DNA of 13,829 nucleotides, taken from contig BNUP01000053.1 of assembly GCA_025997455.1 (NCBI GenBank), positions 1-13,829 on the forward strand. Direction: 5' to 3'. The DNA comes from Fibrobacterales bacterium (GTDB lineage: Bacteria; Fibrobacterota; Fibrobacteria; Fibrobacterales; Fibrobacteraceae). Position 1 is the stretch's first letter; every line of letters starts with the position of its first letter. Under the pieces are notes generated by a model. It had not been told where the DNA came from, did not search any database, and saw only the letters and a program-made list of their open reading frames with translations. Shown in pieces: positions 675-11,244 of this stretch. The position numbers and the translations under genes were made by a program.

Positions 675-772
675 AATGTGGAATGTAGAAAACTTTGCAG
701 TGCAGGGGGGTATATAGGGTGTGGGGTGTAGGGTGTAGGGTGTGGAAAACTCGGCGGTGCATTTAGGGGAGA
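675..772 (-). promoter_or_regulatory. Shared promoter module for the DUF1015 gene: TGCACCGCCGAG box, C-heptamer array, CTGCACTGCAAAG box, then TTTTCTACATTCC with TACATT 7 nt before the ATG
   Basis: The rc of 675-772 reads ctaaatgcaccgccgagttttccacaccctacaccctacaccccacaccctatatacccccctgcactgcaaagttttctacattccacatt-ATG. This cassette recurs at six other gene starts in this window. Confidence 0.45.
712..752. repeat. GGGTRTG-type heptamer array (G-rich on + strand; upstream of minus-strand DUF1015 gene)
   Basis: ggggggtatatagggtgtggggtgtagggtgtagggtgtgg. There are at least 5 G3+ tracts with 3-6-nt loops, which is a G-quadruplex motif. Confidence 0.9.
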
Positions 773-840
773 AGGGAGAAGGTTGGTGTAGGGGCGTGGG
801 AATAGAGTGTAAAGTTGAAAGTTAAAAGTGTAAAGTTATT

Positions 841-884
841 ATTCTCTACTCTCTACTCTTTACTCTTTACTCTTTACTCTTTTC
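841..884. repeat. (CTCTTTA)n / (TACTCTT)n heptamer array, adjacent to an AGTGTAAAG/GTTGAAAG-type array at 816-840
   Basis: attctctactctctactctttactctttactctttactctttt. Related short arrays occur at 3478-3510 (gagtagagtgtaaagagaagagagtaaagttgaaagtg) and 10060-10090 (cttttcacttttcactttcaacttc). Confidence 0.8.
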
Positions 885-983
885 ACTTTTTTGTGGTGTT
901 CTATCCACACCGCGTTCCCCATACCCCATACCCTACACCCCACAATTTTCTACCTTCCCCCAGTAACTAACTTTGGAGGATTT
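884..983 (+). promoter_or_regulatory. Promoter module for the hemerythrin gene: 22-mer GTTCTATCCACACCGCGTTCCC, C-heptamer array, then TTTTCTACCTTCCCCC (TACCTT 951-956) followed by a 27-nt leader containing GGAGGA
   Basis: The same box order as the other modules, but the ATG is 27 nt downstream of the hexamer and the intervening leader carries a canonical SD. This is consistent with the hexamer being a -10 element rather than part of a ribosome binding site. Confidence 0.4.
917..944. repeat. CCCYACA-type heptamer array (C-rich on + strand; upstream of + strand hemerythrin gene)
   Basis: ccccataccccataccctacaccccaca. Confidence 0.9.
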
Positions 984-1391
984 ATGGCTTTTGGTTGGAC
1001 AGACGAGTTGCTCACGGGTAATTCAATGATAGATGAGCAGCACAAGGTGCTTATAAAGGCGATTGTCGATTTACTGGAAGCGAGTAAATCGGGAAACGGC
1101 TTGAACGAGGTTAAAAAGACCGTTGATTTTTTGGCGGATTACACCAATAAGCATTTTAGGGAAGAAGAGGCGTTGCAACAAAAATACGCTTACCCCGATA
1201 TTGAAAATCACAAAAAACTTCACGCCGCGTTTGTGAAAGTTGTTGAGAAAATCAAGGAGAGAATTAACGCAAACGAGTCTCTGCTCACCATTAGCATCGA
1301 TGTACAGCGGGCGGTTGCGGATTGGTTTGTGAATCACATTCTGCGCGAAGACAAAAAAGTCGCAAAGCATATTCAGGACAAAGCGGCATAA
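984..1391 (+). CDS. bacteriohemerythrin (hemerythrin-like O2/iron-binding protein)
   Basis: The ORF track frame runs 891..1391. I place the start at ATG 984, preceded by GGAGGA at 975-980. MAFGWTDELLTGNSMIDEQHKVLI...HFREEE...HKKLH... matches the bacteriohemerythrin N-terminus (W-x-DEL-x-G-x-IDxQHK) and the His/Glu iron ligand spacing. Confidence 0.85.
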   Translation: MAFGWTDELLTGNSMIDEQHKVLIKAIVDLLEASKSGNGLNEVKKTVDFLADYTNKHFREEEALQQKYAYPDIENHKKLHAAFVKVVEKIKERINANESLLTISIDVQRAVADWFVNHILREDKKVAKHIQDKAA

Positions 1392-1423
1392 GGGAACTTC
1401 TAAAAATTGTTGGAATACCTTCA

Positions 1424-1465
1424 GGTAACCTCTACCAACCTCATAAGAGGTTGGTAGAGGTTACC
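1424..1465. repeat. Perfect 19-bp inverted repeat with a 4-nt loop (GGTAACCTCTACCAACCTC-ATAA-GAGGTTGGTAGAGGTTACC), 33 nt after the hemerythrin stop
   Basis: Read directly. There is no adjacent U-tract on the + strand, so it is either an atypical terminator or RNase/protein target, or a REP-like element. Confidence 0.7.
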
Positions 1466-1539
1466 AAGCGGCATGGGCGAACTGCGTTTTTATGGTGAAA
1501 AAGTGCAGTGAACAAAAACGGTAATGCGGAGAACAAAAT

Positions 1540-1830
1540 ATGGCAAGAGATTATATAAAAAGCACGCGGAAAAGTTTGGATATGGAGTCATTGCAAGACC
1601 TCCGTTTTCCTATGGTTATGGAACTCGGCAAGGCGAAGGTGACCGTTCGCGATATGCTGAATTGGCAAAACGGTTCGGTTATTGAATTGGATAGAGTCGC
1701 AGGCGAAAATGTGGATTTGGAGATTAACAAAAAGGTTATGGCTAAGGGCGAAGTTGTGGTTATGAATAATCATTTGGGCTTTCGCTTGGTGACTCTGCTC
1801 TCTCCGGAAGAACGACTGAAGAGTTTGTAA
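1540..1830 (+). CDS. FliN/SpoA-domain protein (flagellar motor switch / T3SS surface-presentation family), 96 aa
   Basis: ELGKAKVTVRDMLNWQNGSVIELDRVAGENVDLEINKKVMAKGEVVVMNNHLGFRLV is a good match to the FliN C-terminal SpoA domain consensus. A GGAGA lies 9 nt upstream. The stop codon directly abuts the next ATG. Confidence 0.75.
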   Translation: MARDYIKSTRKSLDMESLQDLRFPMVMELGKAKVTVRDMLNWQNGSVIELDRVAGENVDLEINKKVMAKGEVVVMNNHLGFRLVTLLSPEERLKSL

Positions 1831-2907
1831 ATGCCTCAACGCAAATTACACGACCGCTTTCACGAAAGATTTCCCAACATTCCAATTTGGCACGCCCCGC
1901 CCTTTTTAATTCACGCTTCACTTTGGATTTTCATTTATCTTGTGCCGGTGATGCTGATACCGTCAGGTCGTGAAAATGCGTGGCAGTTCCGCTATTGGAC
2001 TACTGTTCCGTTTTTGGCGATTATGCTTTCGTTTTATGTCAATTATTTGTTTTTAATTCCCAAATTTCTTTTCAAAAAAAAATTAGTTATTTATGCACTC
2101 ATAAATATTGCGATGTTTTTTTTGCTGTCGTATCTCGGAGGGCTGTGGCACGAACATGTAGTTTCGCTCGGTTATTTGAAACAGCATCCCGATGATTTAC
2201 TTTCTCCCGGTTTCAAGGTGGTAAAAACTATTCTCGGTTTAATATTTGTTCTCGGAATTGCAATTTCAATTCGCACCACAAGCAAATGGTTTATGATGGA
2301 GAACAGCAGTCAAAAATTGCAATTGGAACACCTGCACAGCGAACTTACAATATTAAAAACACAAATTTCTCCTCATTTTCTTTTTAACACTTTGAATAAT
2401 ATTTTAACGCTCATAGATATAAATTCTGAACTCGCAAAACAGACCGTTCAACGACTTTCAAATCTTTTGCGTTCTATACTTTACGATGCGGAGGCGGATA
2501 GTGTGCCTATAAAACAAGAGGTTGAATTTTTGATAAATTACTCAAATTTAATGCGTTTGAGATACGATGAGAAAAAACTTCACTTCAATTTGGAAACCGA
2601 CCTTGAAGAACCAGATGCGCAAATTGCACCGCTGCTTTTAATTCCGCTTTTGGAAAATGTTTTTAAGCACGGAGTCGGCTCCGACGGTTCTGCGAGTATA
2701 GACATAAAAATTACATCAAAAAAGGGAAAGATAATTTACGAGAGTTCAAATACATATTCCCCTAAAACGCACACCGATAAAAGCGGCAACGGAATAGGTT
2801 TGGCAAATGTGCTCAAGCGACTCGAACTGCTTTACGAGAATCGTTTTTTATATGACAGCAAAATTGCAGGCGGAAATTATATAATCAGGCTGCAGGTGGA
2901 GGTTTAA
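1831..2907 (+). CDS. sensor histidine kinase, LytS/YehU family (His_kinase PF06580 + HATPase_c), with a polytopic N-terminal membrane domain
   Basis: N-terminal hydrophobic helices, then LKTQISPHFLFNTLNNI (the phospho-acceptor His box of LytS-type kinases) and a C-terminal GxGxG ATPase region (SGNGIGLANV). The ATG immediately follows the upstream stop. Confidence 0.85.
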   Translation: MPQRKLHDRFHERFPNIPIWHAPPFLIHASLWIFIYLVPVMLIPSGRENAWQFRYWTTVPFLAIMLSFYVNYLFLIPKFLFKKKLVIYALINIAMFFLLSYLGGLWHEHVVSLGYLKQHPDDLLSPGFKVVKTILGLIFVLGIAISIRTTSKWFMMENSSQKLQLEHLHSELTILKTQISPHFLFNTLNNILTLIDINSELAKQTVQRLSNLLRSILYDAEADSVPIKQEVEFLINYSNLMRLRYDEKKLHFNLETDLEEPDAQIAPLLLIPLLENVFKHGVGSDGSASIDIKITSKKGKIIYESSNTYSPKTHTDKSGNGIGLANVLKRLELLYENRFLYDSKIAGGNYIIRLQVEV

Positions 2908-2941
2908 CGGTTTTTAACGGTTTTTATTACCGCAAATCGCA

Positions 2942-3457
2942 TTACCGCGAGTTCAGGTAGTCTAAAACCTTTTGAGTTATGTCGTTTTCGTTTTTCCAAA
3001 AGAGCACCGCACCTGTTGCTCGGTCTAAAACATAGTCATAGCCTTCACTGAGGGCAATTTCATTTACCGCTTTTTTTATCAAGGCGATTATAGGGGCACT
3101 CACCTTTTCATTTTCACTCAAAAGTTCGCCGTTTCTTCCGTAGATTTTTTCGATAAAATTTTTAAGTTCTGCATCGCGCCGTGCATATTCCGCATCTAAT
3201 TCGCGCTTTTGCTCATCGGAAATCATAAGGGACTGCTTTTCTAAGCGTTCCTTTACAAATGCAAGTTCTTTCTGCAAAAGGTTTGCCTGCTGTTCCCATT
3301 TGGCAACTTGCCTGTCGTATTCCTCTTGTGCTTTTTTTGTGCCTTTGTATCCCTCAAATACGAGTTTTGAATCTATATGCGCAACCCGCATTCCGTCTGC
3401 CGCAAATGAAAAATTAAATGCCAAAGCGATAAAAGCAAAGAAGAAAATCGAACGCAT
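2942..3457 (-). CDS. OmpH/Skp-family periplasmic chaperone
   Basis: 171 aa with a signal peptide (MRSIFFFAFIALAFNFSFA) and a charged coiled-coil body (KKAQEEYDRQVAKWEQQANLLQKEL...) typical of OmpH/Skp. TACCTT-type box 6 nt upstream of the ATG. Confidence 0.8.
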   Translation of the reverse strand: MRSIFFFAFIALAFNFSFAADGMRVAHIDSKLVFEGYKGTKKAQEEYDRQVAKWEQQANLLQKELAFVKERLEKQSLMISDEQKRELDAEYARRDAELKNFIEKIYGRNGELLSENEKVSAPIIALIKKAVNEIALSEGYDYVLDRATGAVLFWKNENDITQKVLDYLNSR

Positions 3458-3545
3458 AAGGGTAAGGTAGTTAATTTAGAGTAGAGTGTAAAGAGAAGAG
3501 AGTAAAGTTGAAAGTGGGGGTATAGGGTGTGGGGTGTGGGGGGAA
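3458..3545 (-). promoter_or_regulatory. Promoter module for the OmpH gene: G-heptamer array, CTCTTTA array, then TTAACTACCTTACCC with TACCTT 6 nt before the ATG
   Basis: The rc reads ...ccccccacaccccacaccctatacccccactttcaactttactctcttctctttacactctactctaaattaactaccttaccctt-ATG. Confidence 0.4.
3516..3544. repeat. GGGTRTG-type heptamer array (upstream of minus-strand OmpH gene)
   Basis: gggggtatagggtgtggggtgtgggggg. Confidence 0.85.
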
Positions 3546-3571
3546 ATGGGAAATTGTAGGGGCAGGTTTTA

Positions 3572-3695
3572 ATAAGCATAGCCGCCCAATTAAAAAAAAA
3601 CGAGATAATCTGTATAAACAATGGCGGCAATAAGTATATCTGCCCTATTAAAAAGAAACCTGAGATAATCTGTATATACAATGGCAGAAAACCTG
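3572..3695. repeat. Two tandem ~61-bp AT-rich units inside copy A, each bounded by 6-bp inverted termini (GCCGCC...GGCGGC ; TCTGCC...GGCAGA)
   Basis: Unit 1 is ...gccgcccAATTAAAAAAAAACGAGATAATCTGTATAAACAATGGcggc. Unit 2 is ...tctgcccTATTAAAAAGAAACCTGAGATAATCTGTATATACAATGGcaga, ~80% identical. Copy B (9944-9994) has a single unit. Confidence 0.8.
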
Positions 3696-3749
3696 CCCTT
3701 AGCAGTGCAGAGTAAATTTAACAAGGGAACGCGGTGTGGATAGAACAAC

Positions 3750-3771
3750 AAAAGCCAAGAGTTTGGCTTTT
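3750..3771. terminator. Perfect 9-bp stem hairpin AAAAGCCAA-GAGT-TTGGCTTTT flanked by an A-run and a T-run (bidirectional terminator-like); a second copy lies at 9853-9874
   Basis: The stem and loop are read directly. A-tracts on the 5' side and T-tracts on the 3' side make it look like an intrinsic terminator on either strand. It lies inside the ~400-bp repeat and is followed by three more hairpins (3779-3794, 3817-3835, 3843-3864). Confidence 0.35.
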
Positions 3772-3865
3772 GTAGAGAGAGTGCTTTAGCACTCGTAAGT
3801 TCAGGTTTTTATATACATTGCAAACTCCTTGCAATTCTAAAAGGGCGGGTTAAAAACCACGCCCC

Positions 3866-3939
3866 TACAATTCCTTTCTCCACACCCCACACCCCACACC
3901 CCAACTTGCACCGCCGAGTGATTTTCTACATTCCCTCCT
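3866..3939 (+). promoter_or_regulatory. Promoter module for the lipoprotein/GT-C operon: C-heptamer array, TTGCACCGCCGAGTG (3906-3920), ATTTTCTACATTCCC (TACATT 3927-3932), 7 nt, then ATG 3940
   Basis: Read directly from the sequence. The -35-like TTGCAC and -10-like TACATT are separated by 16 nt. Confidence 0.45.
3881..3905. repeat. CCCCACA heptamer array (upstream of + strand lipoprotein gene)
   Basis: cacaccccacaccccacaccccaac. Confidence 0.9.
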
Positions 3940-4731
3940 ATGAAAAAACTCCTCTCACTTTTTGCAGTATCTGCGCTTGCCCTTGTGGCTTGCAAAAGCA
4001 CCGGCTCGGTATCGGGCACAGTCATTGACCCATTCACGGGAAAAGCGGTTGAACTCCCAACCGTATATGTAAAGGGAACAACATTCTCTTCGCAAAAAAT
4101 ACCGGGCGGTTTGCCGGACGGAACTTTTAAGTTTGAAGGTATTGAGGAAGGAACTTACACGGTGGAGGCGGGCAAAGGTAAATACTCCAAAGGGCATACG
4201 GAATTTACAATTTCAAAAGATGCCGCTAATGCTAAGGCAGATATTTACATTTACAGTCAGAGCACAGACCCCGGACTTTACCGACCTGTAGAAGGTGCGA
4301 ACGCCGAAAAAATCAGTGCGAGAGCAATTTTCCAGCCGATTTGCAAAGAAACGGGAATTGCATTTAGAACAAAATTCACCGTTGAAAATCCGCAAACAAA
4401 AAAGAAAGATGAAAATGTTTTGCCTGCACCGGTAGATGTTCCGCCAGATGTGACTCTGCTCATTAAAATTGCAACTTCCGTGTCCTCACCGATTGAGGCG
4501 ACCTCCTACCCCATACTCACCGAATCTGCAAAAAAACACGCCGATTGCGATGGTGTAGATCCAAAGGAAACTCTGATCGTCCCGAACCTAAGCAAAGGAA
4601 CGGTGATTCCCTCTGCCTACAAGAGTGAAAATTTATACGAAATTAAAGGTTCATTGCAGAGCGGAAAACAAATTCTTGCGATTAAGCAAGATGGTAAATT
4701 GGTAAATGCCTACTATATAAACGCGAAGTGA
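3940..4731 (+). CDS. lipoprotein with an N-terminal carboxypeptidase-regulatory-like (CarbopepD_reg) beta-sandwich domain
   Basis: Lipobox MKKLLSLFAVSALALVAC. SGTVIDPFTGKAVELPTVYVKGT...DGTFKFEGIEEGTYTV fits CarbopepD_reg_2. Its stop overlaps the next gene's start (GTGA at 4728-4731). Confidence 0.8.
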   Translation: MKKLLSLFAVSALALVACKSTGSVSGTVIDPFTGKAVELPTVYVKGTTFSSQKIPGGLPDGTFKFEGIEEGTYTVEAGKGKYSKGHTEFTISKDAANAKADIYIYSQSTDPGLYRPVEGANAEKISARAIFQPICKETGIAFRTKFTVENPQTKKKDENVLPAPVDVPPDVTLLIKIATSVSSPIEATSYPILTESAKKHADCDGVDPKETLIVPNLSKGTVIPSAYKSENLYEIKGSLQSGKQILAIKQDGKLVNAYYINAK

Positions 4732-7196
4732 TTACGAGTCGTTTTCTTTTTCCATTGATTTACACTGCACCTGTGCTCGCAGGTGCGTTGTTGTTATTCC
4801 AAAAAATTCCGCAAAATTCCGCAAAATACTTAGATATTGAATTTGGTTATTATGCAATTCTCTCCGTCTTTTTGTGGTTTTGCATCGCTTTAATTTGGAA
4901 TGCAAAAGAGATTTTTAATAGGGTAAAAGAGACTCTGCCGTCACGGAAGGCTGCTTGCGGACTCGGCGTTTTGCTTGTTGCATTTGCGGCGTTTGCTCTC
5001 ACTCAAATTGACCTTCGGCACAGAGTTTTGAGCGATGAGACGAGTTGGGAATCGATGGCTTTGGAGATGCGTTTTAATAAAAGCGGCGGAGTGTGTAATC
5101 AGGGGGTGTGGAAAGACGGCGTTTTGGAATGCCGAGATGTTGTGAATAATTTTAAGGGTAAGGCGTTTGCACTTGCGCAATCCTTAGCATTTTTATTTTT
5201 AGAACCGAACAGGGACACTTCCCTACTGCTGAATTTACCTCTTGCTCTCGGCTCAATTGCTCTTTTATTTTTTGCATTATTTCGATTTACCCGCGATGAA
5301 TATCTCGCTCTCACGGCGGCGATTTTTTTGGCGAGTATGCCGATTTTTCTGTTTCAGTCCCGTTCCGCATCTACCGAAGTTTTATATGTGTTTTTATTCG
5401 CTTTACTTTTGTGCATATACTCGCTTGTGCCTCCAAAAGAAATTAGTGTTCGGCATTTTGCACTCATAATTCCGTTGCTCGGACTCTTTGCACAGACGAG
5501 GCAGGAGACCGTTTTTTGTTTTATTCCCTTTGCGTTGTATTATCACGCCTATTTTAGAGAAAAAACTTGGCGATTGCCGATTTTTGTTTTTTTGGTTATT
5601 TTTGCGAGTTGGGTTTCTATAAATACAATGATAGCCTACCGCGGTTACGATTTTCAAGGCGGTGAGCATTCTGCACATTCCATTGCAAATTTTATTTACA
5701 ACTTTAAGTCAGATGTTAAAATTATGTGGAATGCGGGACTTGGCAACAACGGTCTTTTGAAAAATCCATTCTACACAACTTATACTTTGCTTTTGTTTGC
5801 AAGTTCAATTTGGTTGCTTTACAGAATAATTTTTCGGCGAAAATATTTGTGGTCGGGATTGTTGTTCGCCTTGTTTTGTTTGCAAATTGCGGTGATACTT
5901 TTTAATGTGTCGGGCACTTTTGAAATTGACATAAATCAGAGGTATGTTTTGGTTGCGTTGCCGTTGTTTGCGATTATTATGGCGGTTGGTTTTTGTGATA
6001 TATTTAAATGTCGCTTATTAGGTTCTGACGACTTATTAACGGGTTCTTCAGAGCCTGCTAAAAATTCAAAATTCGTCTGTATTTTGGCGGCTGTGCTCGC
6101 GGTTTATCTTTCGTTTCATCACAAAGAGAGTTTTAATGCTAACATTTTATATAGCCGAAATATGCTTCTCTCAGAGGAAGATTTTTTGAATACGGAGTTA
6201 AAAAAACTCCCGTCAAATTCAGTTTTTATTTATGCCAGACCTTGGCAAATGCTCGCAAGCGGTTTAACCGGATTTTCAGAACGGCAATTTTTGGGTTGGT
6301 CGCCAAAAGAATTGGATGATATGAGAAATTTTTCCGATGATAACATTTACATTGTGCGCGGGCAAGACGGCTATGGCGAGGTGAATAGAAATTCGCGGGT
6401 GGTCGGTTTTAAAACGACTTCAACAATAGATGCAATTTTGCAGGATTATGCAAATAATAAAATTTTTTCTGTGAATAAGCCCTTCGGTTATCCGCTTGAG
6501 GCATATAAAATCGGAAGGAAAAGAGGAGAATCGAAATATGAAAATTATTACAAACTTTATTTTGATGTGGGCGATTCGGCATTGAAAGTTTCGGTATCAA
6601 CTCCAGAGAATACTTCTAATTCAGAGACGAAAAACATTTTAGCAACGGAAAATTACGAACTTCTTTTGGATAACAAGTTTTATGAAAAAGGAAATGAAAA
6701 ATCGGCAGGTATGCATTACGCAACTTTAACTGCATTTGTCGAAGGCGATACCATAAAAAAGGAAACGCAATTTTTTGTTAGAAGTGAAAATAATCGACTT
6801 TTGCAGGATACAAAACCGAACAGTTGGGAGCAGAGTTGGAGCGAGCCTAAATACGGAAAATCGGTGGAAGGAAATACCATAAAAATTGACGGCAGAATTT
6901 TTGAATATGGGATAGGCTCTCATTCGCCTTCAAAATTAGTATGGGATATAAACGGCAAATACAAAAAATTTCACGGTTTTATTGGCTTAGATGATGAATC
7001 TGCGTGCGGGAACGGAGTTATTTATATTGTAAAAGGAGATGGTAAATCGCTTTACAAATCACGAGTTCTCGCCTCGCACGAATTGGATTCTCTTGAAGTA
7101 AATTTGGACGGAATTAAAACACTTGAACTTGAAACACTCGACAACGGCGATAAAGACTGCGACCACGCAAATTGGGCAGGTGCGTGGCTTGAATAG
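4728..7196 (+). CDS. polytopic membrane protein: ArnT/PMT-like GT-C glycosyltransferase N-terminal domain fused to a C-terminal NPCBM carbohydrate-binding domain
   Basis: 822 aa, GTG start overlapping the upstream stop. There are about 12 hydrophobic helices in the first ~430 aa, with an SDETSWESMALEM loop motif resembling the DExxYxExxxEM signature of GT39/GT83 enzymes. The C-terminal ~140 aa (GIGSHSPSKLVWDINGKYKKFHGFIGLDDESACGNGVIYIVKGDGKSLYKS...CDHANWAGAWL) matches the NPCBM/NEW2 consensus. Confidence 0.8.
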   Translation: MITSRFLFPLIYTAPVLAGALLLFQKIPQNSAKYLDIEFGYYAILSVFLWFCIALIWNAKEIFNRVKETLPSRKAACGLGVLLVAFAAFALTQIDLRHRVLSDETSWESMALEMRFNKSGGVCNQGVWKDGVLECRDVVNNFKGKAFALAQSLAFLFLEPNRDTSLLLNLPLALGSIALLFFALFRFTRDEYLALTAAIFLASMPIFLFQSRSASTEVLYVFLFALLLCIYSLVPPKEISVRHFALIIPLLGLFAQTRQETVFCFIPFALYYHAYFREKTWRLPIFVFLVIFASWVSINTMIAYRGYDFQGGEHSAHSIANFIYNFKSDVKIMWNAGLGNNGLLKNPFYTTYTLLLFASSIWLLYRIIFRRKYLWSGLLFALFCLQIAVILFNVSGTFEIDINQRYVLVALPLFAIIMAVGFCDIFKCRLLGSDDLLTGSSEPAKNSKFVCILAAVLAVYLSFHHKESFNANILYSRNMLLSEEDFLNTELKKLPSNSVFIYARPWQMLASGLTGFSERQFLGWSPKELDDMRNFSDDNIYIVRGQDGYGEVNRNSRVVGFKTTSTIDAILQDYANNKIFSVNKPFGYPLEAYKIGRKRGESKYENYYKLYFDVGDSALKVSVSTPENTSNSETKNILATENYELLLDNKFYEKGNEKSAGMHYATLTAFVEGDTIKKETQFFVRSENNRLLQDTKPNSWEQSWSEPKYGKSVEGNTIKIDGRIFEYGIGSHSPSKLVWDINGKYKKFHGFIGLDDESACGNGVIYIVKGDGKSLYKSRVLASHELDSLEVNLDGIKTLELETLDNGDKDCDHANWAGAWLE
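6018..6056. repeat. ~36-bp imperfect palindromic element (GGTTCTGACGAC-TTATTAACGG-GTTCTTCAGAGCC) lying in-frame inside the GT-C/NPCBM gene (encodes LGSDDLLTGSSEP)
   Basis: About 85% identical (28/33) to the intergenic element at 7401-7439. It sits at the junction between the TM domain and the extracytoplasmic region. Confidence 0.6.
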
Positions 7197-7204
7197 GGGG
7201 AAAT

Positions 7205-7399
7205 ATGAAATACGGAAAATTATCTGATGAAAAATTGACTGTTAAAAAGAAAAAGGTAAAGAGTGCAAAAATTGAAAAGAACGCAGTGGGAGCGGAAATT
7301 GAAAATAACGCGGAAACCTCGAATGTTGCGGAAGGAAAAAACTCCCTGCTAAAAATTCGGGAAAAAATTTTAAACGCAATTGCAGTGATTAAAAAGTAG
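7205..7399 (+). CDS. hypothetical Lys-rich small protein (64 aa)
   Basis: The ORF lies 8 nt after the upstream stop and is preceded by GGGGGAAAT. It is low complexity (KKKKVKSAKIEK) with no recognisable domain, and could be a spurious or small disordered protein. Confidence 0.35.
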   Translation: MKYGKLSDEKLTVKKKKVKSAKIEKNAVGAEIENNAETSNVAEGKNSLLKIREKILNAIAVIKK

Positions 7400-7400
7400 A

Positions 7401-7439
7401 GTAGGCTCTGATGACCTCTTAACGAGTTCTTCAGAGATT
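7401..7439. repeat. Intergenic copy of the same ~36-bp palindromic element (GGCTCTGATGAC-CTCTTAACGA-GTTCTTCAGAG) between convergent genes. It could act as a bidirectional terminator hairpin.
   Basis: Arms CTCTGATGAC / GTTCTTCAGAG form a ~10-bp imperfect stem. It lies between the stop of the 7205-7399 ORF and the stop of the MbfA-like gene. Confidence 0.6.
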
Positions 7440-7442
7440 ACT

Positions 7443-8318
7443 TTACAACTCTATTCCCAGAAAGTGCTTGACCAACTGTGCAATGGCAAACGACACAACG
7501 GAAACCAAAGCACACAAGCCGAACATTTCAAAAAAACGAGTTTTGAATTTCAAATCCTTAGCAACCGAAATATAATAGTTGAACGCCGCTATTATAAACA
7601 CAACAACGGCGAACATAGTAAGCAATGCGTGCAAATACATTTCCTTGGGAAACAGGAGATAAGGTGCAGTCATTAACGCAACGGTTACAAGATACATCGC
7701 TCCTGTGTAAAAACTCGATTTAACTGCTTGCGGATCGCCGTCTGCTTTTGCACTCAGGTAAGCGGAGGCAGTCATTGAAAGAGTCGCAGAAATTCCCGTT
7801 ATGAGACCCGCGAGTGCAACCATTCGAGTATTCTGCAATGCAAATGAAAAACCTGCGAGCGCACCAGTCAGTTCCACAAGTGCATCGTTCATACCGAGCA
7901 CCATAGACCCGACGAATTTCAATCGTTCTTCGTCTAACATATTTATTAAAACTTTTTCGTGCCGTTCTTCATCTGCACGAACTTGTGCGACTTCGGGAAA
8001 TTGGTCTATGAATTTGGAATAATTGACAACCGCAGAAGTTTCACCTTTTTCGAGAAATTTTATCATAAAAGTAAAACCGAAAAGTTTAGCAAAAAATAAA
8101 CTCATATTGACATGAAACCAATTCGCTTTAAGTTTTTTTCCCGTATATTTAGCCCATATTTTTTCGTGGTGGCTTTCGTCTATTGCCAAGTTTTCCAAAA
8201 TCTCACCGTTTTTTTCGCCGATTTTTTTCGCTATGCGTGAATATATCGTCGCACTGTCTGCCTCGCATTGTTGCATAAAGCAGAAGAATTTTGATGTTTT
8301 CGCCGAGAGAGTTGCCAT
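7443..8318 (-). CDS. erythrin-VIT1 family membrane ferritin / iron exporter (MbfA-like: N-terminal ferritin-like diiron domain + C-terminal VIT1/CCC1 transporter domain)
   Basis: Two E-x-x-H diiron motifs (DESHHEKIW, DEERHEKVL) form a rubrerythrin/erythrin-like N-terminal domain. They are followed by the VIT1 signature (GMNDALVELTGALAGFS) and 4-5 TM helices. TACCTT box 7 nt upstream of the ATG. Confidence 0.85.
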   Translation of the reverse strand: MATLSAKTSKFFCFMQQCEADSATIYSRIAKKIGEKNGEILENLAIDESHHEKIWAKYTGKKLKANWFHVNMSLFFAKLFGFTFMIKFLEKGETSAVVNYSKFIDQFPEVAQVRADEERHEKVLINMLDEERLKFVGSMVLGMNDALVELTGALAGFSFALQNTRMVALAGLITGISATLSMTASAYLSAKADGDPQAVKSSFYTGAMYLVTVALMTAPYLLFPKEMYLHALLTMFAVVVFIIAAFNYYISVAKDLKFKTRFFEMFGLCALVSVVSFAIAQLVKHFLGIEL

Positions 8319-8410
8319 TGTGGGGAAGGTAGAAAGTTTGCACGCGGCGGTGCAGATTAGGGTGTAGGGTATGGGGTGTAGGGTGTGGGGAACTCGGCGT
8401 TGCAGAGGAA
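8319..8410 (-). promoter_or_regulatory. Promoter module for the MbfA-like gene: CTGCAACGCCGAGTT, C-heptamer array, TAATCTGCACCGCCGCGTGCAAAC, then TTTCTACCTTCCCC with TACCTT 7 nt before the ATG
   Basis: The rc of this interval is about 95% identical over ~90 nt to 10081-10170 upstream of the epimerase gene. Confidence 0.45.
8359..8390. repeat. GGGTRTG-type heptamer array (upstream of minus-strand MbfA-like gene)
   Basis: tagggtgtagggtatggggtgtagggtgtgggg. Confidence 0.9.
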
Positions 8411-8418
8411 ACCATAAA

Positions 8419-8745
8419 CTACGGTATTGGGTAAAACACCCCGTATCTGTCGTGCAGGTATTCTTTTTCGTTGTAAATGGGTTTTATCAATTCTAATTTT
8501 GCAGGAGTTCCAGCGTTGTTCAAACTGTCTGCAATTTCAGCCGCCCGTGCTGCACCCAATAGTTGCCCGATTACGAAAATTGTGTCGCCAAACGCACTTC
8601 CGTTTTCATATCTTTTTAATTCGACTTCTTTTTTTGCAAAGTTCAGAGTGCTCTCTTCGCGCATAACTATGTATAACACCAAAGCGGCATATATTATTAG
8701 GATAACACAAGCACTTCTTAAAATTGTAAAAAAAATTCTTTTCAT
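8419..8745 (-). CDS. hypothetical small membrane-anchored protein (108 aa)
   Basis: A single N-terminal TM helix (ILRSACVILIIYAALVLYIVM) followed by a soluble domain. It lies downstream of the SPFH gene on the same strand, separated by two hairpins. No family assigned. Confidence 0.5.
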   Translation of the reverse strand: MKRIFFTILRSACVILIIYAALVLYIVMREESTLNFAKKEVELKRYENGSAFGDTIFVIGQLLGAARAAEIADSLNNAGTPAKLELIKPIYNEKEYLHDRYGVFYPIP

Positions 8746-8875
8746 CTCTTTTCATCTCGTTAGAAGGGGTGTTCTTTTTGCAATGACAAACTGCCGAAGG
8801 GGTAGCGGAAAACACGCGTAGGGGCGGAGTTTGCCCGCCCATTATGCGCGGTTGGAGCGAGGGGAAGGCTTTCCC

Positions 8876-9685
8876 CTACCTGACATCTAAAAAGGGAATC
8901 GGTGCATTGCCGCCCATATAAGTCGGGAGTTGTCCGTTCCATTTTTCAATGGATTTTAAGTTCACATAATCTTTGCCGCCCTGTGCACGAATTGCATCTG
9001 CCTGAATGCGTATGGATTCCGCCTCGCCGCGTGCCTGTGCAATTTTTTGGTCTGCCTCAACCTTAATCCGTTCCAAGTTATTTTTCGCCGTGAGTGCCTT
9101 TTGCTCCGCGACTTGCTTGTCCTCAATCGCCTCGTTAAATCCCTTGCTGAAATCGAAGTTGGTAATTTGCACGCCGCCCGCATCGACAATTATATTGTAG
9201 TCCAAAAGTTGCCTCGTTAAACTCTCGGAAATTTCGTTTTTCACCTGCTCACGCATAGTGAGTAATTCCTCCGCCGCGTATCTCGCCACAACCGCTTTAA
9301 CCGTTTCCTGTATGCGCGCCGCGATAATTTTGTTCTCAACATCCAAGCCTACTGTCGAGTAGAGTTCTCTTAATTTGACTTGATCCAAGTGGTAGTTTAG
9401 GGTGAGAACGGTTGAGACAATCTGCATATTTTTAGATGCCGCCTGTGCCGGTGCCTCTGCTTTTTGCGTGCGAATATCGACCTTTGAAATTGTTTGCATT
9501 ATCGGGATTTTGAAGTGCAAGCCCTCATCGCTCACCGATGTGATTTCGCCCCAAGTGAAGACCAACGCCTTTTCTCCCGAACGCACGGTGTAAAACGCAC
9601 CCGATACCACTATTGAGCCTATTACTATTGCGATTATTGCAACAGTGAGAAATTTTGTGCCTATGCTGCCATTTTGATTTACCAT
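8876..9685 (-). CDS. SPFH/band-7 (prohibitin/HflC-like) membrane protein
   Basis: N-terminal TM anchor (FLTVAIIAIVIGSIVVSGAF), then the typical SPFH core (YTVRSGEKALVFTWGEI...) and an Ala/Glu-rich coiled-coil tail (KQVAEQKALTAKNNLERIKVEADQKIAQARGEAE). TACATT box 6 nt upstream of the ATG. Confidence 0.9.
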   Translation of the reverse strand: MVNQNGSIGTKFLTVAIIAIVIGSIVVSGAFYTVRSGEKALVFTWGEITSVSDEGLHFKIPIMQTISKVDIRTQKAEAPAQAASKNMQIVSTVLTLNYHLDQVKLRELYSTVGLDVENKIIAARIQETVKAVVARYAAEELLTMREQVKNEISESLTRQLLDYNIIVDAGGVQITNFDFSKGFNEAIEDKQVAEQKALTAKNNLERIKVEADQKIAQARGEAESIRIQADAIRAQGGKDYVNLKSIEKWNGQLPTYMGGNAPIPFLDVR

Positions 9686-9760
9686 TATGGGAATGTAGAA
9701 AATTAACTCGGCAGTGCAAGTTGGGGTGTGGGGTGTGGGGTGTGGGGTGTGGAGAAAGGA
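9686..9760 (-). promoter_or_regulatory. Promoter module for the SPFH gene: C-heptamer array (on the gene's coding strand), TTGCACTGCCGAGTT, AATTTTCTACATTCCC, 6 nt, then ATG
   Basis: The rc reads ctccacaccccacaccccacaccccaacttgcactgccgagttaattttctacattcccata-ATG. It is homologous to 3881-3939. Confidence 0.45.
9723..9752. repeat. GGGGTGT heptamer array (upstream of minus-strand SPFH gene)
   Basis: ggggtgtggggtgtggggtgtggggtgtgg. Confidence 0.9.
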
Positions 9761-9767
9761 ATTGTAG

Positions 9768-9794
9768 GGGCGTGGTTTTTAACCCGCCCTTTTA
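9768..9794 (+). terminator. Hairpin GGGGCGTGG-TTTTTAA-CCCGCCC followed by TTTT (terminator-like on the + strand); the copy-A equivalent at 3843-3864 points along the minus strand
   Basis: GC-rich stem of 8-9 bp with one bulge, immediately followed by a T4 run. In both copies it would stop transcripts leaving the inverted-repeat-bounded segment before they enter the neighbouring genes (epimerase or OmpH). Confidence 0.35.
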
Positions 9795-10030
9795 GAATTG
9801 CAAGGAGTTTGCAATGTATATAAAAACCTGAACTTACGAGTGCTAAAGCACTCTCTCTACAAAAGCCAAACTCTTGACTTTTGTTGTTCTATCCACACCG
9901 CGTTCCCTTGTTAAATTTACTCTGCACTGCTAAGGGCATGTTTTCTGCCATTGTATATACAGATTATCTCAGGTTTCTTTTTAATAGGGCAGATATACTT
10001 ATTAAAACCTGCCCCTACAATTTCCCATTT

Positions 10031-10060
10031 CCCCCCCACACCCCACACCCTACACCCCAC
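10031..10060. repeat. CCCYACA heptamer array, the inner of two arrays upstream of the epimerase gene
   Basis: cccccccacaccccacaccctacaccccac. Confidence 0.85.
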
Positions 10061-10080
10061 TTTTCACTTTTCACTTTCAA

Positions 10081-10170
10081 CTTCTGCAACGCCAAGTTCC
10101 CCACACCCTACACCCCATACCCTACACCCTAATCTGCACCGCCGCGTGCAAACTTTCTACCTTCCCTCCA
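10081..10170 (+). promoter_or_regulatory. Promoter module for the epimerase/LtaS-like operon: CTGCAACGCCAAGTT, C-heptamer array, TAATCTGCACCGCCGCGTGCAAAC, TTTCTACCTTCCC (TACCTT 10158-10163), 7 nt, then ATG 10171
   Basis: Read directly from the sequence. It duplicates the MbfA-like gene's 5' module. Confidence 0.45.
10099..10130. repeat. CCCYACA heptamer array, proximal and upstream of the epimerase gene
   Basis: ccccacaccctacaccccataccctacaccct. This and its flanks are near-identical to rc(8319-8410) upstream of the MbfA-like gene. Confidence 0.9.
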
Positions 10171-11244
10171 ATGAACATTTTAGTCACCGGTGCGGCAGGG
10201 TTTATAGGGAATGCGGTTTCTTTATCGCTTCTTGCACGAGGACATTCCGTGCTCGGACTCGATAACTTAAACGATTATTATTCTGTGGAACTCAAAAAAG
10301 CAAGGCTTGGCAGATGCAAAGAATTTGCAGAACAAGGTTTATTTTCATTTAAGCAATTAGACATAACAAACACGGAAGACATCAATAAATTTTTCGGCGA
10401 AAATAAATTTGACAGCGAAAATAAAGTAATCTCAGAAGAACTCCTCAAAACTTTACCTCATAAAACAACAAGTTCTTCAGTTCCAACTAAATTTGACGGA
10501 ATAATTCATTTGGCGGCGCAGGCTGGAGTCCGCTACAGTTTGGAAAATCCATACACATATATAGATACAAACATAAAAGGCACTCTAAATTTACTTGAAG
10601 CGTGCCGCAGAAATTCCATAGATAATTTTGTCTATGCGAGCAGCAGTTCCGTTTATGGAGACAATGCAAAAATTCCGTTCAGCACCGAAGACATCGCAGA
10701 TTTTCCCGTCAGTTTATACGCCGCAACCAAACGGAGCACCGAACTAATCGCCCACACATATTCGCACTTATTCGGTATTAAAGCGGTGGGACTCAGGTTT
10801 TTTACGGTTTATGGCGAATGGGGAAGACCAGATATGGCTCCTATGCTTTTTGCGAAAAACATTTTGGCAGATCGCCCAATAAAAATTTTCAACAACGGGA
10901 ATATGCGCAGGGATTTCACATATATAGATGATATTGTGAATGGGACAATTGGAATTTTTGAATGGAATGCCGCACGCAAAATTATTGAAAATGATAAAAA
11001 TGCCGCGAGAACTTTTAACATAGGTCGCGGTGAGCCTGTGGATCTTTTGAATTTTGTGGAAGTTTTGGAAAACGAATTGGGAAAAAAAGCCGAAAAAGAA
11101 TTTTTACCTATGCAGGCGGGCGATGTTCCAGTAACTTGGGCAGACACTTCCGCACTCGAAAAAGTAATCGGTTACAAACCATCGGTTTCCTTAGCACAAG
11201 GCGTTAAAAATTTTGCAAAATGGTATAAATCATATTATGCTTAA
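10171..11244 (+). CDS. NAD-dependent sugar-nucleotide epimerase of the SDR family, UDP-glucuronate 4-epimerase-like, carrying a 28-aa in-frame insertion
   Basis: MNILVTGAAGFIGNAVSLSLLARGHSVLGLDNLNDYYSVELKKARL...IHLAAQAGVRYS...YASSSSVYG...YAATK... matches the GalE/UDP-GlcA-4-epimerase (Cap1J/WbpP-like) pattern with the YxxxK catalytic motif. Confidence 0.9.
   Translation: MNILVTGAAGFIGNAVSLSLLARGHSVLGLDNLNDYYSVELKKARLGRCKEFAEQGLFSFKQLDITNTEDINKFFGENKFDSENKVISEELLKTLPHKTTSSSVPTKFDGIIHLAAQAGVRYSLENPYTYIDTNIKGTLNLLEACRRNSIDNFVYASSSSVYGDNAKIPFSTEDIADFPVSLYAATKRSTELIAHTYSHLFGIKAVGLRFFTVYGEWGRPDMAPMLFAKNILADRPIKIFNNGNMRRDFTYIDDIVNGTIGIFEWNAARKIIENDKNAARTFNIGRGEPVDLLNFVEVLENELGKKAEKEFLPMQAGDVPVTWADTSALEKVIGYKPSVSLAQGVKNFAKWYKSYYA
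10414..10497. mobile_element. 84-bp in-frame insertion in the epimerase gene flanked by a 9-10-bp direct repeat (T)AAATTTGAC (10404-10413 and 10488-10497), with an internal inverted repeat CAGAAGAACT...AGTTCTTCAG
   Basis: The DRs are read directly. The insert encodes SENKVISEELLKTLPHKTTSSSVPTKFD between a duplicated KFD immediately before the conserved IHLAAQAGVRYS. UDP-GlcA epimerases normally have a single KFD-like tripeptide directly before xVIHLAAQ. Confidence 0.55.

Follow-up and report, generated by a model that had tools for sequence, protein, structure and literature searches.

What role, if any, is played by short arrays of G-rich heptamers that stand in front of a series of genes on a single bacterial contig? 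This question is raised by contig BNUP01000053.1 of a Fibrobacterales bacterium (GenBank assembly GCA_025997455.1), whose 13,829 nt, analysed as a whole, are referred to here as the window. It carries eight (GGGTRTR)3-5 arrays, built from the units GGGTGTG, GGGTGTA and GGGTATG, which were identified by Tandem Repeats Finder (TRF) and by pattern search. The explanation that we favour, with a probability of about 0.6, is that these arrays are G-rich heptanucleotide simple sequence repeats (SSRs) situated upstream of a leaderless -10 box, that they are carried in reused cassettes and drift by slippage, and that they are dispensable and at most modulatory.

G-rich heptamer arrays and their orientation

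The array pattern GGGTRTRGGGTRTR is matched 20 times in the window, compared to 0.01 matches expected, and none of 200 shuffles matched that count. The arrays measure 24-33 nt, corresponding to 3.4-4.7 units, with a period of 7 and 80-100% matches as determined by TRF. A first-pass annotation of this DNA had likewise counted eight arrays, while the length of 25-41 nt that it gave for them does not agree with these measurements. Based on open reading frame (ORF) and Pfam analysis all eight arrays are intergenic, even though approximately 85% of the window is coding, and seven of them are located within three divergent spacers. As had also been claimed, the C-rich strand is in every case (8/8) the coding strand of the adjacent downstream gene, which the array faces, the G-rich strand being the template strand. 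The genes faced in this manner are g1 (DUF1015), g2 (hemerythrin), g5 (Skp), g6 (lipoprotein), g9 (VIT1), g11 (SPFH) and g12 (epimerase, faced by two arrays), and the distance from array to ATG amounts to 38-59 nt for seven arrays and to 111 nt for A7.

The G-tract counts of arrays A1 to A8 are 4, 4, 4, 3, 5, 4, 4 and 5, respectively. A canonical G-quadruplex (G4) motif (G3+N1-7 x4) is present in seven of the eight, the exception being A4 (3880-3903), which possesses three GGGG tracts plus a GG and for which G4-aware folding predicts no G4; the earlier claim of a canonical G4 in every array is correct for the other seven only. All eight arrays score above 1.5 in G4Hunter, the prediction that the annotation had proposed as a check, with peaks ranging from 1.84 to 2.68. 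H-DNA and Z-DNA were also considered and were rejected, the units being neither homopurine nor long alternating runs.

In the spacer between g1 and g2, array A1, i.e., (GGGTGTR)x4 on the plus strand (715-744), faces the minus-strand gene g1 (start 674), extending from -43 to -70 relative to its ATG, and includes a G4 motif at 717-740 formed by its four G-tracts. Array A2, (CCCCATA/CCCTACA)x3.7 (917-943), faces the plus-strand gene g2 (ATG 984) and ends 6-9 nt upstream of its -10 box. Between g5 and g6, array A3 (3517-3543) faces the minus-strand Skp/OmpH gene g5 (start 3457) at 46 nt upstream of a variant -10 box, the gap being filled by CT-rich heptamers, while A4, (CCACACC)x3.4, faces the plus-strand lipoprotein gene g6 (ATG 3940), contains three G/C tracts of at least 3 nt and is one heptamer shorter than its paralog A6. 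Array A5 (8358-8390; 4.7 units) faces the minus-strand gene g9 (start 8318) and is the sole array in a tandem gene context, the stop codon of g10 (8419) being 29 nt away. In the spacer between g11 and g12, the perfect array A6, (TGGGGTG)x4.4 (9722-9752), faces the minus-strand gene g11 (start 9685) and returns the strongest G4 prediction of all arrays. The two arrays of the plus-strand gene g12 (ATG 10171) are the distal A7 (10031-10060; -140 to -111), a paralog of A3 at the far end of a repeated element of 440 nt (described below), and the proximal A8 (10099-10131), a paralog of A5.

Promoter geometry and probable leaderless transcription

Read on the coding strand, the arrays belong to a module that consists, in this order, of the array, a TGCACYGCC(G)AG box, the sequence TTTCTAC(A/C)TTCCC, 3-4 nt and the ATG. 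The motif TWCTAYMTT is matched six times in the window as opposed to 0.74 matches expected (0 of 200 shuffles), and all six matches are located directly upstream of start codons, in the correct orientation and each with an upstream array; the seventh gene, g5, possesses the one-mismatch variant AACTACCTT. In six of the seven modules, 6-7 nt separate the ATG from the end of the hexamer TACMTT, which fits TAnnnT. The distance is 7 nt for g1 (TTCTACATT, 682-690, minus strand, with TACATT as its hexamer), g6 (TTCTACATT, 3924-3932, plus strand), g9 (TTCTACCTT, 8326-8334, minus strand) and g12 (TTCTACCTT, 10155-10163, plus strand), and 6 nt for g5 (3464-3472, minus strand) and g11 (TTCTACATT, 9692-9700, minus strand). 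The seventh module is that of g2, whose -10 box (TTCTACCTT, 948-956, plus strand) lies 27 nt from the ATG and is the only one followed by a leader with a Shine-Dalgarno (SD) sequence, GGAGG; no SD sequence is present in the six other genes. For g1 and g12, the position of the start codon follows from domain boundaries. An in-frame N-terminal extension of a gene through its array would be possible for g2 only (ORF 891-1391), for which the SD sequence and the Pfam boundary favour the ATG at 984.

A Pribnow box at 6-8 nt from the start codon is an accepted signature of leaderless transcription (GeneMarkS-2 group C; PMC6028130), and this arrangement, i.e., a -10 box ending approximately 6-8 nt before the ATG of a first gene that lacks an SD sequence, is found in six of the seven modules. 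TTCTACMTT, or more generally TWCTAYMTT, is most likely the extended -10 box of leaderless mRNAs in this lineage, because relatives (see below) carry the box as far from the ATG as it is here, even in spacers of 33 nt. Six of the seven genes would be leaderless according to this geometry, with the arrays upstream of the core promoter and not transcribed. A scan of the window for canonical sigma-70 promoters, which does not recognise the TTCTACMTT promoters, returned no enrichment (27 matches versus 25.9 expected).

Placing an array relative to the transcription start is usually difficult for heptamer repeats, an obstacle that a leaderless lineage removes: since the start codon of a leaderless gene would mark the start of transcription, the arrays can be positioned from the sequence alone. 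In five modules the array spans approximately -38 to -72, counted from the presumptive start of transcription, the outliers being g2, with its array 6-9 nt upstream of the -10 box, and g5, with its array 46 nt upstream. It had been proposed that the arrays occupy the position of an UP element or activator site, and the five modules, whose arrays fall in the zone of UP elements and class-I activators, agree with this in terms of position; however, the distance from array to -10 box ranges from 6 to 46 nt across the modules, that from TGCAC box to -10 box from 12 to 18 nt, and no phasing is apparent. Furthermore, an UP element is A/T-rich, located at about -40 to -60 and contacted by the C-terminal domain of the RNA polymerase alpha subunit, whereas the arrays, though suitably positioned in these five modules, are 50-57% G or C. 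Variable spacing also led us to reject the TGCAC box, the best candidate for the -35 element assumed in the annotation, as a fixed -35 element. This box, TGCACCGCCGAG, separates array and -10 box at 3907-3918 (plus strand) and has seven further copies, at 693-704, 750-761, 8343-8354, 8393-8404 and 9707-9718 on the minus strand and at 10085-10096 and 10135-10146 on the plus strand, such that arrays A1, A5 and A8 are flanked by a copy on either side.

Reused cassettes and single-heptamer slippage

Two pairs of modules proved to be near-identical copies. A 91-nt promoter cassette (box, array, box, TTCTACCTT and ATG) upstream of g9 (8316-8406, minus strand) recurs upstream of g12 (10083-10173, plus strand) with 97% identity. 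An element of approximately 440 nt upstream of g6 (3504-3939, plus strand), comprising a distal array, a hairpin-rich core, a proximal array, a box and the -10 box, recurs as an inverted copy upstream of g11 (9686-10071) with 99% identity, and a repeat search delimited a 275-nt stretch at 99% identity within this pair. In both pairs the similarity ends 3-6 nt before the ATG, and the downstream genes are unrelated according to Pfam (VIT1 and epimerase; lipoprotein and SPFH). Owing to these two pairs, the evidence on orientation within the window derives from approximately five independent modules.

Alignment of the g6 and g11 copies identified one 58-nt indel, one 7-nt indel and few substitutions. 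The former corresponds to one copy of a 60-nt tandem duplication and the latter to one heptamer of the array (A4 versus A6), and this difference of one heptamer between cassettes of 99% identity is direct evidence that the arrays change in length by slippage of single units. Variation in array length between paralogous modules by slippage, as the first-pass annotation had suggested, is therefore confirmed. The g6 cassette persists although its array A4 falls below the four-tract threshold for a G4. Phase-variable promoter SSRs are located in the promoter spacer or leader of surface or virulence genes, and their copy number is polymorphic within populations. Here a one-unit difference between paralogs is seen, and the genes served are housekeeping genes. 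A look-up of three window proteins for exact matches, aimed at a comparison within the species, found none.

Sequences of at least 50 nt with at least 80% identity, located no more than about 150 nt upstream of the starts of non-homologous coding sequences, have been termed putative mobile promoters (Matus-Garcia et al. 2012, PMC3488235), a description that applies to both cassette pairs (91 nt at 97% and approximately 440 nt at 99%). As in the cassettes, conservation of these promoters begins a few nucleotides before the start codon; they are, however, an operational category, which is silent on heptamer arrays and leaderless geometry (PMC3488235). A scan of metagenomes with the module pattern TGCACYGC-N4-14-TTTCTACMTTCC returned 54 single matches, none of which had an array or BLAST similarity to the window, and these were dismissed as chance matches.

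The hairpin-rich core of the 440-nt element (3544-3879 and 9753-10030) contains a bidirectional terminator-like stem, AAAAGCCAA-N4-TTGGCTTTT (3748-3773), as well as GAGTGC-TTTA-GCACTC and GGGCGGGTT-AAAAA-CCACGCCC, the latter followed by a T-run on the opposite strand, and one copy of the core bears the 60-nt tandem duplication (3571-3685). The core could represent a small RNA gene or a mobile element. An Rfam search of the window returned no match above threshold; two sub-threshold matches, to plant microRNA and small nucleolar RNA models (24-26 bits against gathering thresholds of 100-168), are due to a long hairpin in the spacer between g1 and g2. No tRNA genes were found in the window.

Other heptamer families in the same spacers

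Further tandem repeats detected by TRF include (GGGAGAA)2 (767-782), (AAAGTTA)x4 (811-838), (TTACTCT)x6.3 (839-889), a repeat of period 14 (3478-3507) and (CACTTTT)3 (10058-10077). These non-G arrays occupy the same spacers as the (GGGTRTR)n arrays and are likewise pyrimidine-rich on the coding strand of the gene that they face. The purine fraction of the plus strand is 0.68-0.75 where a minus-strand gene is faced and 0.17-0.28 where a plus-strand gene is faced, with the switch in the spacer between g1 and g2 occurring at approximately position 835, and the coding-strand side contains 0-15% G and 28-57% C over 120-160 nt. As the non-G arrays obey the same polarity, the features common to all are the 7-nt periodicity and a pyrimidine-rich coding strand, and not the potential to form a G4.

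An octamer, GCCCCTAC, which contains one CCCTACA unit, is present six times (788-795, 3556-3563, 3861-3868, 8818-8825, 9764-9771 and 10011-10018). Five of the copies are located in array-bearing spacers, on the gene-distal side of the array and usually as (A)TTGTAGGGGC(G/A), and the sixth (8818-8825) is in the spacer between g10 and g11, which has no array. These octamers resemble array units in decay, or they may constitute a motif of their own.

Relatives within the Fibrobacterota

The nearest homologues of the g12 epimerase (approximately 60-63% identity) belong to Fibromonadaceae and other Fibromonadales from termite guts, and three Fibromonadales loci with 50 called genes (L175-L177) were retrieved by means of such homologues. 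In these loci, TAnnnT starts at -16 to -12 in 22 of the 50 genes compared to a background of 13.5% (p=1e-7). TWCTAYMTT, in the form of TTCTACATT, TTCTACCTT or TACTATATT, precedes 18 of the 50 genes, and 14 of these 18 boxes end 6-10 nt before the ATG. The orthologous epimerase of one relative has TATATT at 6-7 nt before its ATG within a divergent spacer of 33 nt, which leaves no space for a leader. Despite their use of the same -10 box, no array was found in L176 and L177 (39.5 kb). The annotation's view of the arrays as a stereotyped component of this promoter is thus not upheld, as it applies to the present contig and not to the 39.5 kb of relatives with the same box.

The association of arrays with promoters does recur in the Fibrobacterota, at a minority of promoters. 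In other metagenome-assembled genomes (MAGs) of this phylum (L068, L074, L113 and L175), (CCCYATA)n arrays are found 21-23 nt upstream of a TATATT box, from which they are separated by a conserved WAATCAnnnnWTTAC box. The complete module, i.e., GATTTAGCC, array, AAGCGAsTAAATCAGCGTTTAC and TATATTA, occurs at 4440-4640 of L068, 40-110 and 575-640 of L074, 150-260 of L113 and 12395-12460 of L175; it is common to different MAGs, and its box is also present without an array at position 1219 of L175. Either a promoter architecture has been conserved in this module, or the module is an element that has become dispersed. Closely similar (CCCYATA)n arrays are found in MAGs assigned to three phyla: L018 and L109 (Prevotellaceae bin), L103 (Planctomycetaceae bin), and L068 and L074 (Fibrobacterota bins). 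The isolate names Pc512_bin92, Im510_bin130, Spi319_bin2 and Th196P3bin8 suggest a single MAG series, presumably of termite-gut bins, and the occurrence of these arrays across phyla could reflect horizontal spread, convergent slippage or mis-binning.

The apparent use of TWCTAYMTT (TTCTACATT or TACTATATT) as an extended -10 box, 6-10 nt before the ATG of approximately 40% of Fibromonadales-type genes, points to widespread leaderless mRNAs in this part of the Fibrobacterota, a member of the Fibrobacteres-Chlorobi-Bacteroidetes (FCB) group. A literature search found no description of TWCTAYMTT or of widespread leaderless mRNAs for the Fibrobacterota. In the GeneMarkS-2 survey, most species of the FCB group were placed in the class with non-SD ribosome-binding sites (PMC6028130).

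Comparison with heptamer repeats of other bacteria

A scan of one genome per species, in which at least three units were required, identified at least 120 loci with arrays of this kind (L001-L120). Most are cyanobacterial (Microcystis, Nostoc, Lyngbya, Oscillatoria and Moorena), and among the matches listed, to which all counts in this paragraph refer, are also Bacteroidota, Planctomycetota, Gemmatimonadota and three Fibrobacterota MAGs. The strand bias extends beyond the window: of 85 intergenic arrays, 66 have a C-rich strand that runs into whichever gene is closer (p=3e-7), and a count limited to one array per locus gives 53 of 71, with genes called by a simple, crude in-house ORF caller. 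Between genes on the same strand, the coding strand tends to be C-rich in arrays near starts (23:6) and G-rich in arrays near stops (14:4; Fisher p=2e-4). The number of tracts peaks at 4-5 and drops five-fold at 6 in this sample of arrays of three or more units. Arrays of the opposite polarity, G-rich on the coding strand, follow a stop codon by 3-30 nt in, for example, L012, L025, L038, L051, L053, L066 and L084. They may form another class of this repeat, located at 3' ends and with no member in the window. A BLAST search of the window against the listed loci, of which there are at least 120, returned matches to the arrays themselves and to nothing else.

Heterocystous cyanobacteria reportedly carry short tandemly repeated repetitive (STRR) heptanucleotides, said to have been reported by Mazel and colleagues in 1990. 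In both the STRRs and the window, several heptamer families stand in tandem in the non-coding DNA of one genome, those of the window being GGGTRTR, TTACTCT, AAAGTTA, CACTTTT and GGGAGAA. The consensus sequences differ, however, and STRR is a cyanobacterial term; we know of no description that links STRRs to promoter geometry.

The annotation had stated that no described class accounts for such arrays. Such a class has in fact been described: G-rich heptamers in runs of approximately four, located no more than 50 bp upstream of ORFs and on their template strand, are known from Xanthomonas (GGGAATC) and Nostoc PCC 7120 (GGGGA(C/T)T), they form G4s in vitro, and most GGGAATC repeats are transcribed in Xanthomonas, while their functional role was left to be worked out (Rehm et al. 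2015, PMC4692102). Like these repeats, the arrays of the window are tandem heptamers with one G3-4 tract per unit, a variable number of units and housekeeping neighbours (PMC4692102); they run head to tail, show a non-coding bias, number approximately four units and have their G-rich strand as the non-coding strand upstream of an ORF. On these sequence features the arrays belong to this class of bacterial G-rich heptamer repeats. They differ from the repeats of Xanthomonas and Nostoc in their motif (GGGTRTR), in their phylum, in having a definable position with respect to a leaderless -10 box, and in that they travel in near-identical cassettes. Biophysical evidence of G4 formation (circular dichroism, K+ dependence) is a further mark of the class; for the arrays of the window, G4s are predicted. 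What is new here is the motif, the phylum, the context of divergent spacers and the placement relative to the transcription start that leaderless geometry affords.

Further heptamer repeats have been described close to promoters and start codons, and one of these likewise bears on the claim that no described class fits. In the ctxAB promoter of Vibrio cholerae, TTTTGAT heptads abut the core promoter, and their number varies by strain and correlates with promoter activity, rendering them the closest functional analogue of the promoter tuning envisaged in the annotation. In contrast to the arrays of the window, these heptads are AT-rich binding sites for ToxT and H-NS, are confined to one locus and have no G4 potential. 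In Nostoc, where heptamer repeats accompany DNA-repair genes, the recO promoter had the same basal activity after the repeats were deleted. TAACTGA repeats of 2-6 copies in Beggiatoaceae, cyanobacteria and Bacteroidetes (MacGregor 2015, PMC4679880) resemble the present arrays in being oriented, near start codons, without a common gene function and patchily distributed across phyla; yet they are located a few nucleotides from the start codon in the presumed leader, are not G-rich and have been assigned a proposed post-transcriptional role (PMC4679880). In Haemophilus influenzae, the promoters of hmw1A and hmw2A are separated from the start codons by a 7-nt SSR, the copy number of which alters expression (PMC8262952, PMC12721329). 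It is a long, highly polymorphic and transcribed tract of an adhesin contingency locus, whereas the arrays of the window are short and located upstream of housekeeping genes.

Function of the arrays

In the explanation favoured here, the arrays would be of the same kind as the STRRs and the GGGNATC and GGGGAYT repeats of Xanthomonas and Nostoc, and the spacers that host them would be long intergenic patchworks of several heptamer families. Array, TGCAC box and -10 box would constitute a reusable promoter cassette, spread among unrelated genes by recent copying or conversion, and it would be due to this copying or conversion that the orientation looks stereotyped, while the arrays drift in length by slippage of single heptamers. 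Since relatives employ the same -10 box without arrays, these appear to be dispensable for this promoter type and would act, at most, as a modulatory, structure-prone upstream flank. One may speculate that negative supercoiling between divergent promoters would favour a G4 in the template strand or an i-motif in its partner, and that either structure could change the strength of the promoter or halt polymerases that read into it. Slippage by one unit near the four-tract threshold would, in that event, change the structure-forming property of an array.

A number of points weigh against this explanation. The origin of the arrays may be purely neutral, and the cross-phylum orientation statistics depend on crude gene calling. 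Repeats of the class described by Rehm et al. are under-represented between divergent ORFs (PMC4692102), whereas seven of the eight arrays of the window are in such a position. The leaderless model, for its part, draws on promoter geometry and on the relatives only. In the centre of the spacer between g1 and g2, two sigma-70-like sites are arranged back to back, i.e., TTGAAA-16-TATTAT at 815-842 on the plus strand and TTTACA-17-TACACT at 834-806 on the minus strand, and their use would place A1 and A2 in 5' leaders. Moreover, the G-poor, pyrimidine-rich asymmetry reaches 120-160 nt from each start codon, which resembles a leader more than an upstream flank.

The first-pass annotation had regarded the arrays as a dedicated promoter element, in which a template-strand G4 at the position of an UP element or activator site is required for promoter activity or sets its level, tuned in the manner of a variable number tandem repeat. 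Such an element would account for the canonical G4 motif in seven of eight arrays and for G4Hunter scores above 1.5 in all, for the location at -38 to -72 in five modules, for the presence of an array at every TTCTACMTT promoter of the window and for the clustering of tract numbers at 4-5, the minimum that a G4 requires, in the window as well as in at least 120 other loci; the one-unit difference between recent paralogs and the formation of G4s in vitro by related repeats (PMC4692102) also agree with it. We nevertheless consider it rather unlikely. A4 has three tracts, yet its cassette shares 99% identity with that of A6, which is G4-competent; between array and -10 box there may be as few as 6 or as many as 46 nt, and the arrays serve housekeeping rather than contingency genes. 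The Nostoc recO promoter retains its basal activity when its heptamer array is deleted, and, because 39.5 kb from relatives that use the same -10 box in leaderless geometry contain no array and non-G heptamer arrays share both spacers and polarity with the G-rich ones, a promoter function based on G4 formation is unproven. Decidedly unlikely is an arrangement in which promoters in the middle of the spacers would leave the arrays in G-free, C/U-rich 5' leaders, as unstructured translation enhancers, sites for S1 or cold-shock-type proteins that bind single strands, or Rho-loading attenuators. Six of seven genes lack an SD sequence and have the -10 box at leaderless distance, the sole gene with a leader, g2, does possess GGAGG, and the 33-nt spacers in which relatives use the same box are too short for a promoter further upstream. 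Furthermore, the sigma-70-like matches in the window are not enriched (27 versus 25.9), and none are present in the other two divergent spacers, even if the best matches in the spacer between g1 and g2 are central and divergent as this arrangement demands. Its appeal further lies in the coding-strand composition, which resembles that of Rho utilisation (rut) sites over the same 120-160 nt, in the transcription of most GGGAATC repeats in Xanthomonas (PMC4692102), and in the TAACTGA heptamers of Beggiatoaceae, which adjoin start codons and have been proposed as sites for S1, Csp or CsrA (PMC4679880).

The arrays might also be imperfect terminal inverted repeats of 230-440 bp mobile elements, i.e., miniature inverted-repeat transposable elements that carry an outward promoter and were inserted in the divergent spacers, each of which is bounded by a G-array to its left and a C-array to its right (720-754/910-944, 3509-3539/3880-3910 and 9713-9752/10034-10075). 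The presence of two copies of the 440-nt element in opposite orientation at 99% identity, and the folding of the spacer between g1 and g2 as a long hairpin (z = -3.6), would be expected of such elements. The similarity, however, extends 37 nt past the proximal array to the ATG and just about 13 nt past the distal array, the 91-nt cassette of g9 and g12 has a single array with no inverted partner, inspection by eye identified no target-site duplication at the ends, no transposase is present, Rfam returned nothing above threshold, and the metagenome scan provided no match outside the contig, all of which renders this origin very improbable. It is still harder to envisage an artefact, be it contamination with telomere-like TG1-3 sequence of a eukaryote or mis-assembly of a MAG at repeats. 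GGGTGTG does resemble fungal telomeric repeats, and the contig does originate from a metagenome bin; yet the arrays, at 24-33 nt, are internal and situated between intact bacterial genes with nearest homologues in Fibromonadaceae, and arrays of the same kind are present in independent Fibrobacterota MAGs (L068, L074, L113 and L175) and in complete cyanobacterial genomes. Telomeric repeats proper, whose long arrays cap linear replicons, were rejected on the same grounds, the present arrays being short and internal.

A broader proposal, and one to which we attach little credence, is that oriented heptamer arrays act across phyla as directional insulators of gene boundaries. It takes its cue from the C-rich strand reading 5' to 3' into the nearest gene, whether its start or its stop is faced, in all eight arrays of the window and in 66 of 85 among the matches listed from other phyla. 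If this were true, an incoming polymerase would meet a G4-prone template and produce a G-free, C-rich, rut-like RNA, either of which could stop it. In this Fibrobacterota lineage the arrays would then shield leaderless promoters, whose genes lack an SD sequence and so could make no use of read-in transcripts, and A4, with three tracts, and A6, with four, would represent a barrier switched off and on by slippage of one unit.

Under the favoured explanation, that of dispensable and drifting SSRs, the window reveals no new kind of element. It does offer a natural experiment, in the form of cassettes of 99% identity with either three or four G-tracts and of relatives that possess the -10 box and no array, which makes a promoter-level test of G4-capable heptamer repeats straightforward.

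Further repeats and hairpins

A repeat of approximately 35-45 nt (TAGGYTCTGAYGACNTNTTAACGRGTTCTTCAGAG) is present within the epimerase gene (10405-10475), within g7 (6005-6075) and in the spacer between g8 and g9 (7388-7458). In the epimerase it coincides with an in-frame insertion of 28 amino acids, which is absent from the 63%-identical homologue P0002, and it adjoins an 18-nt tandem repeat (10384-10425). The repeat is reminiscent of Rickettsia palindromic elements, which insert in frame into genes. Finally, a perfect long hairpin, ggtaacctctaccaacctc-ataa-gaggttggtagaggttacc (1425-1466), is located 34 nt past the stop codon of the hemerythrin gene; it has no T-tract and is probably a terminator or an RNA-stability element.

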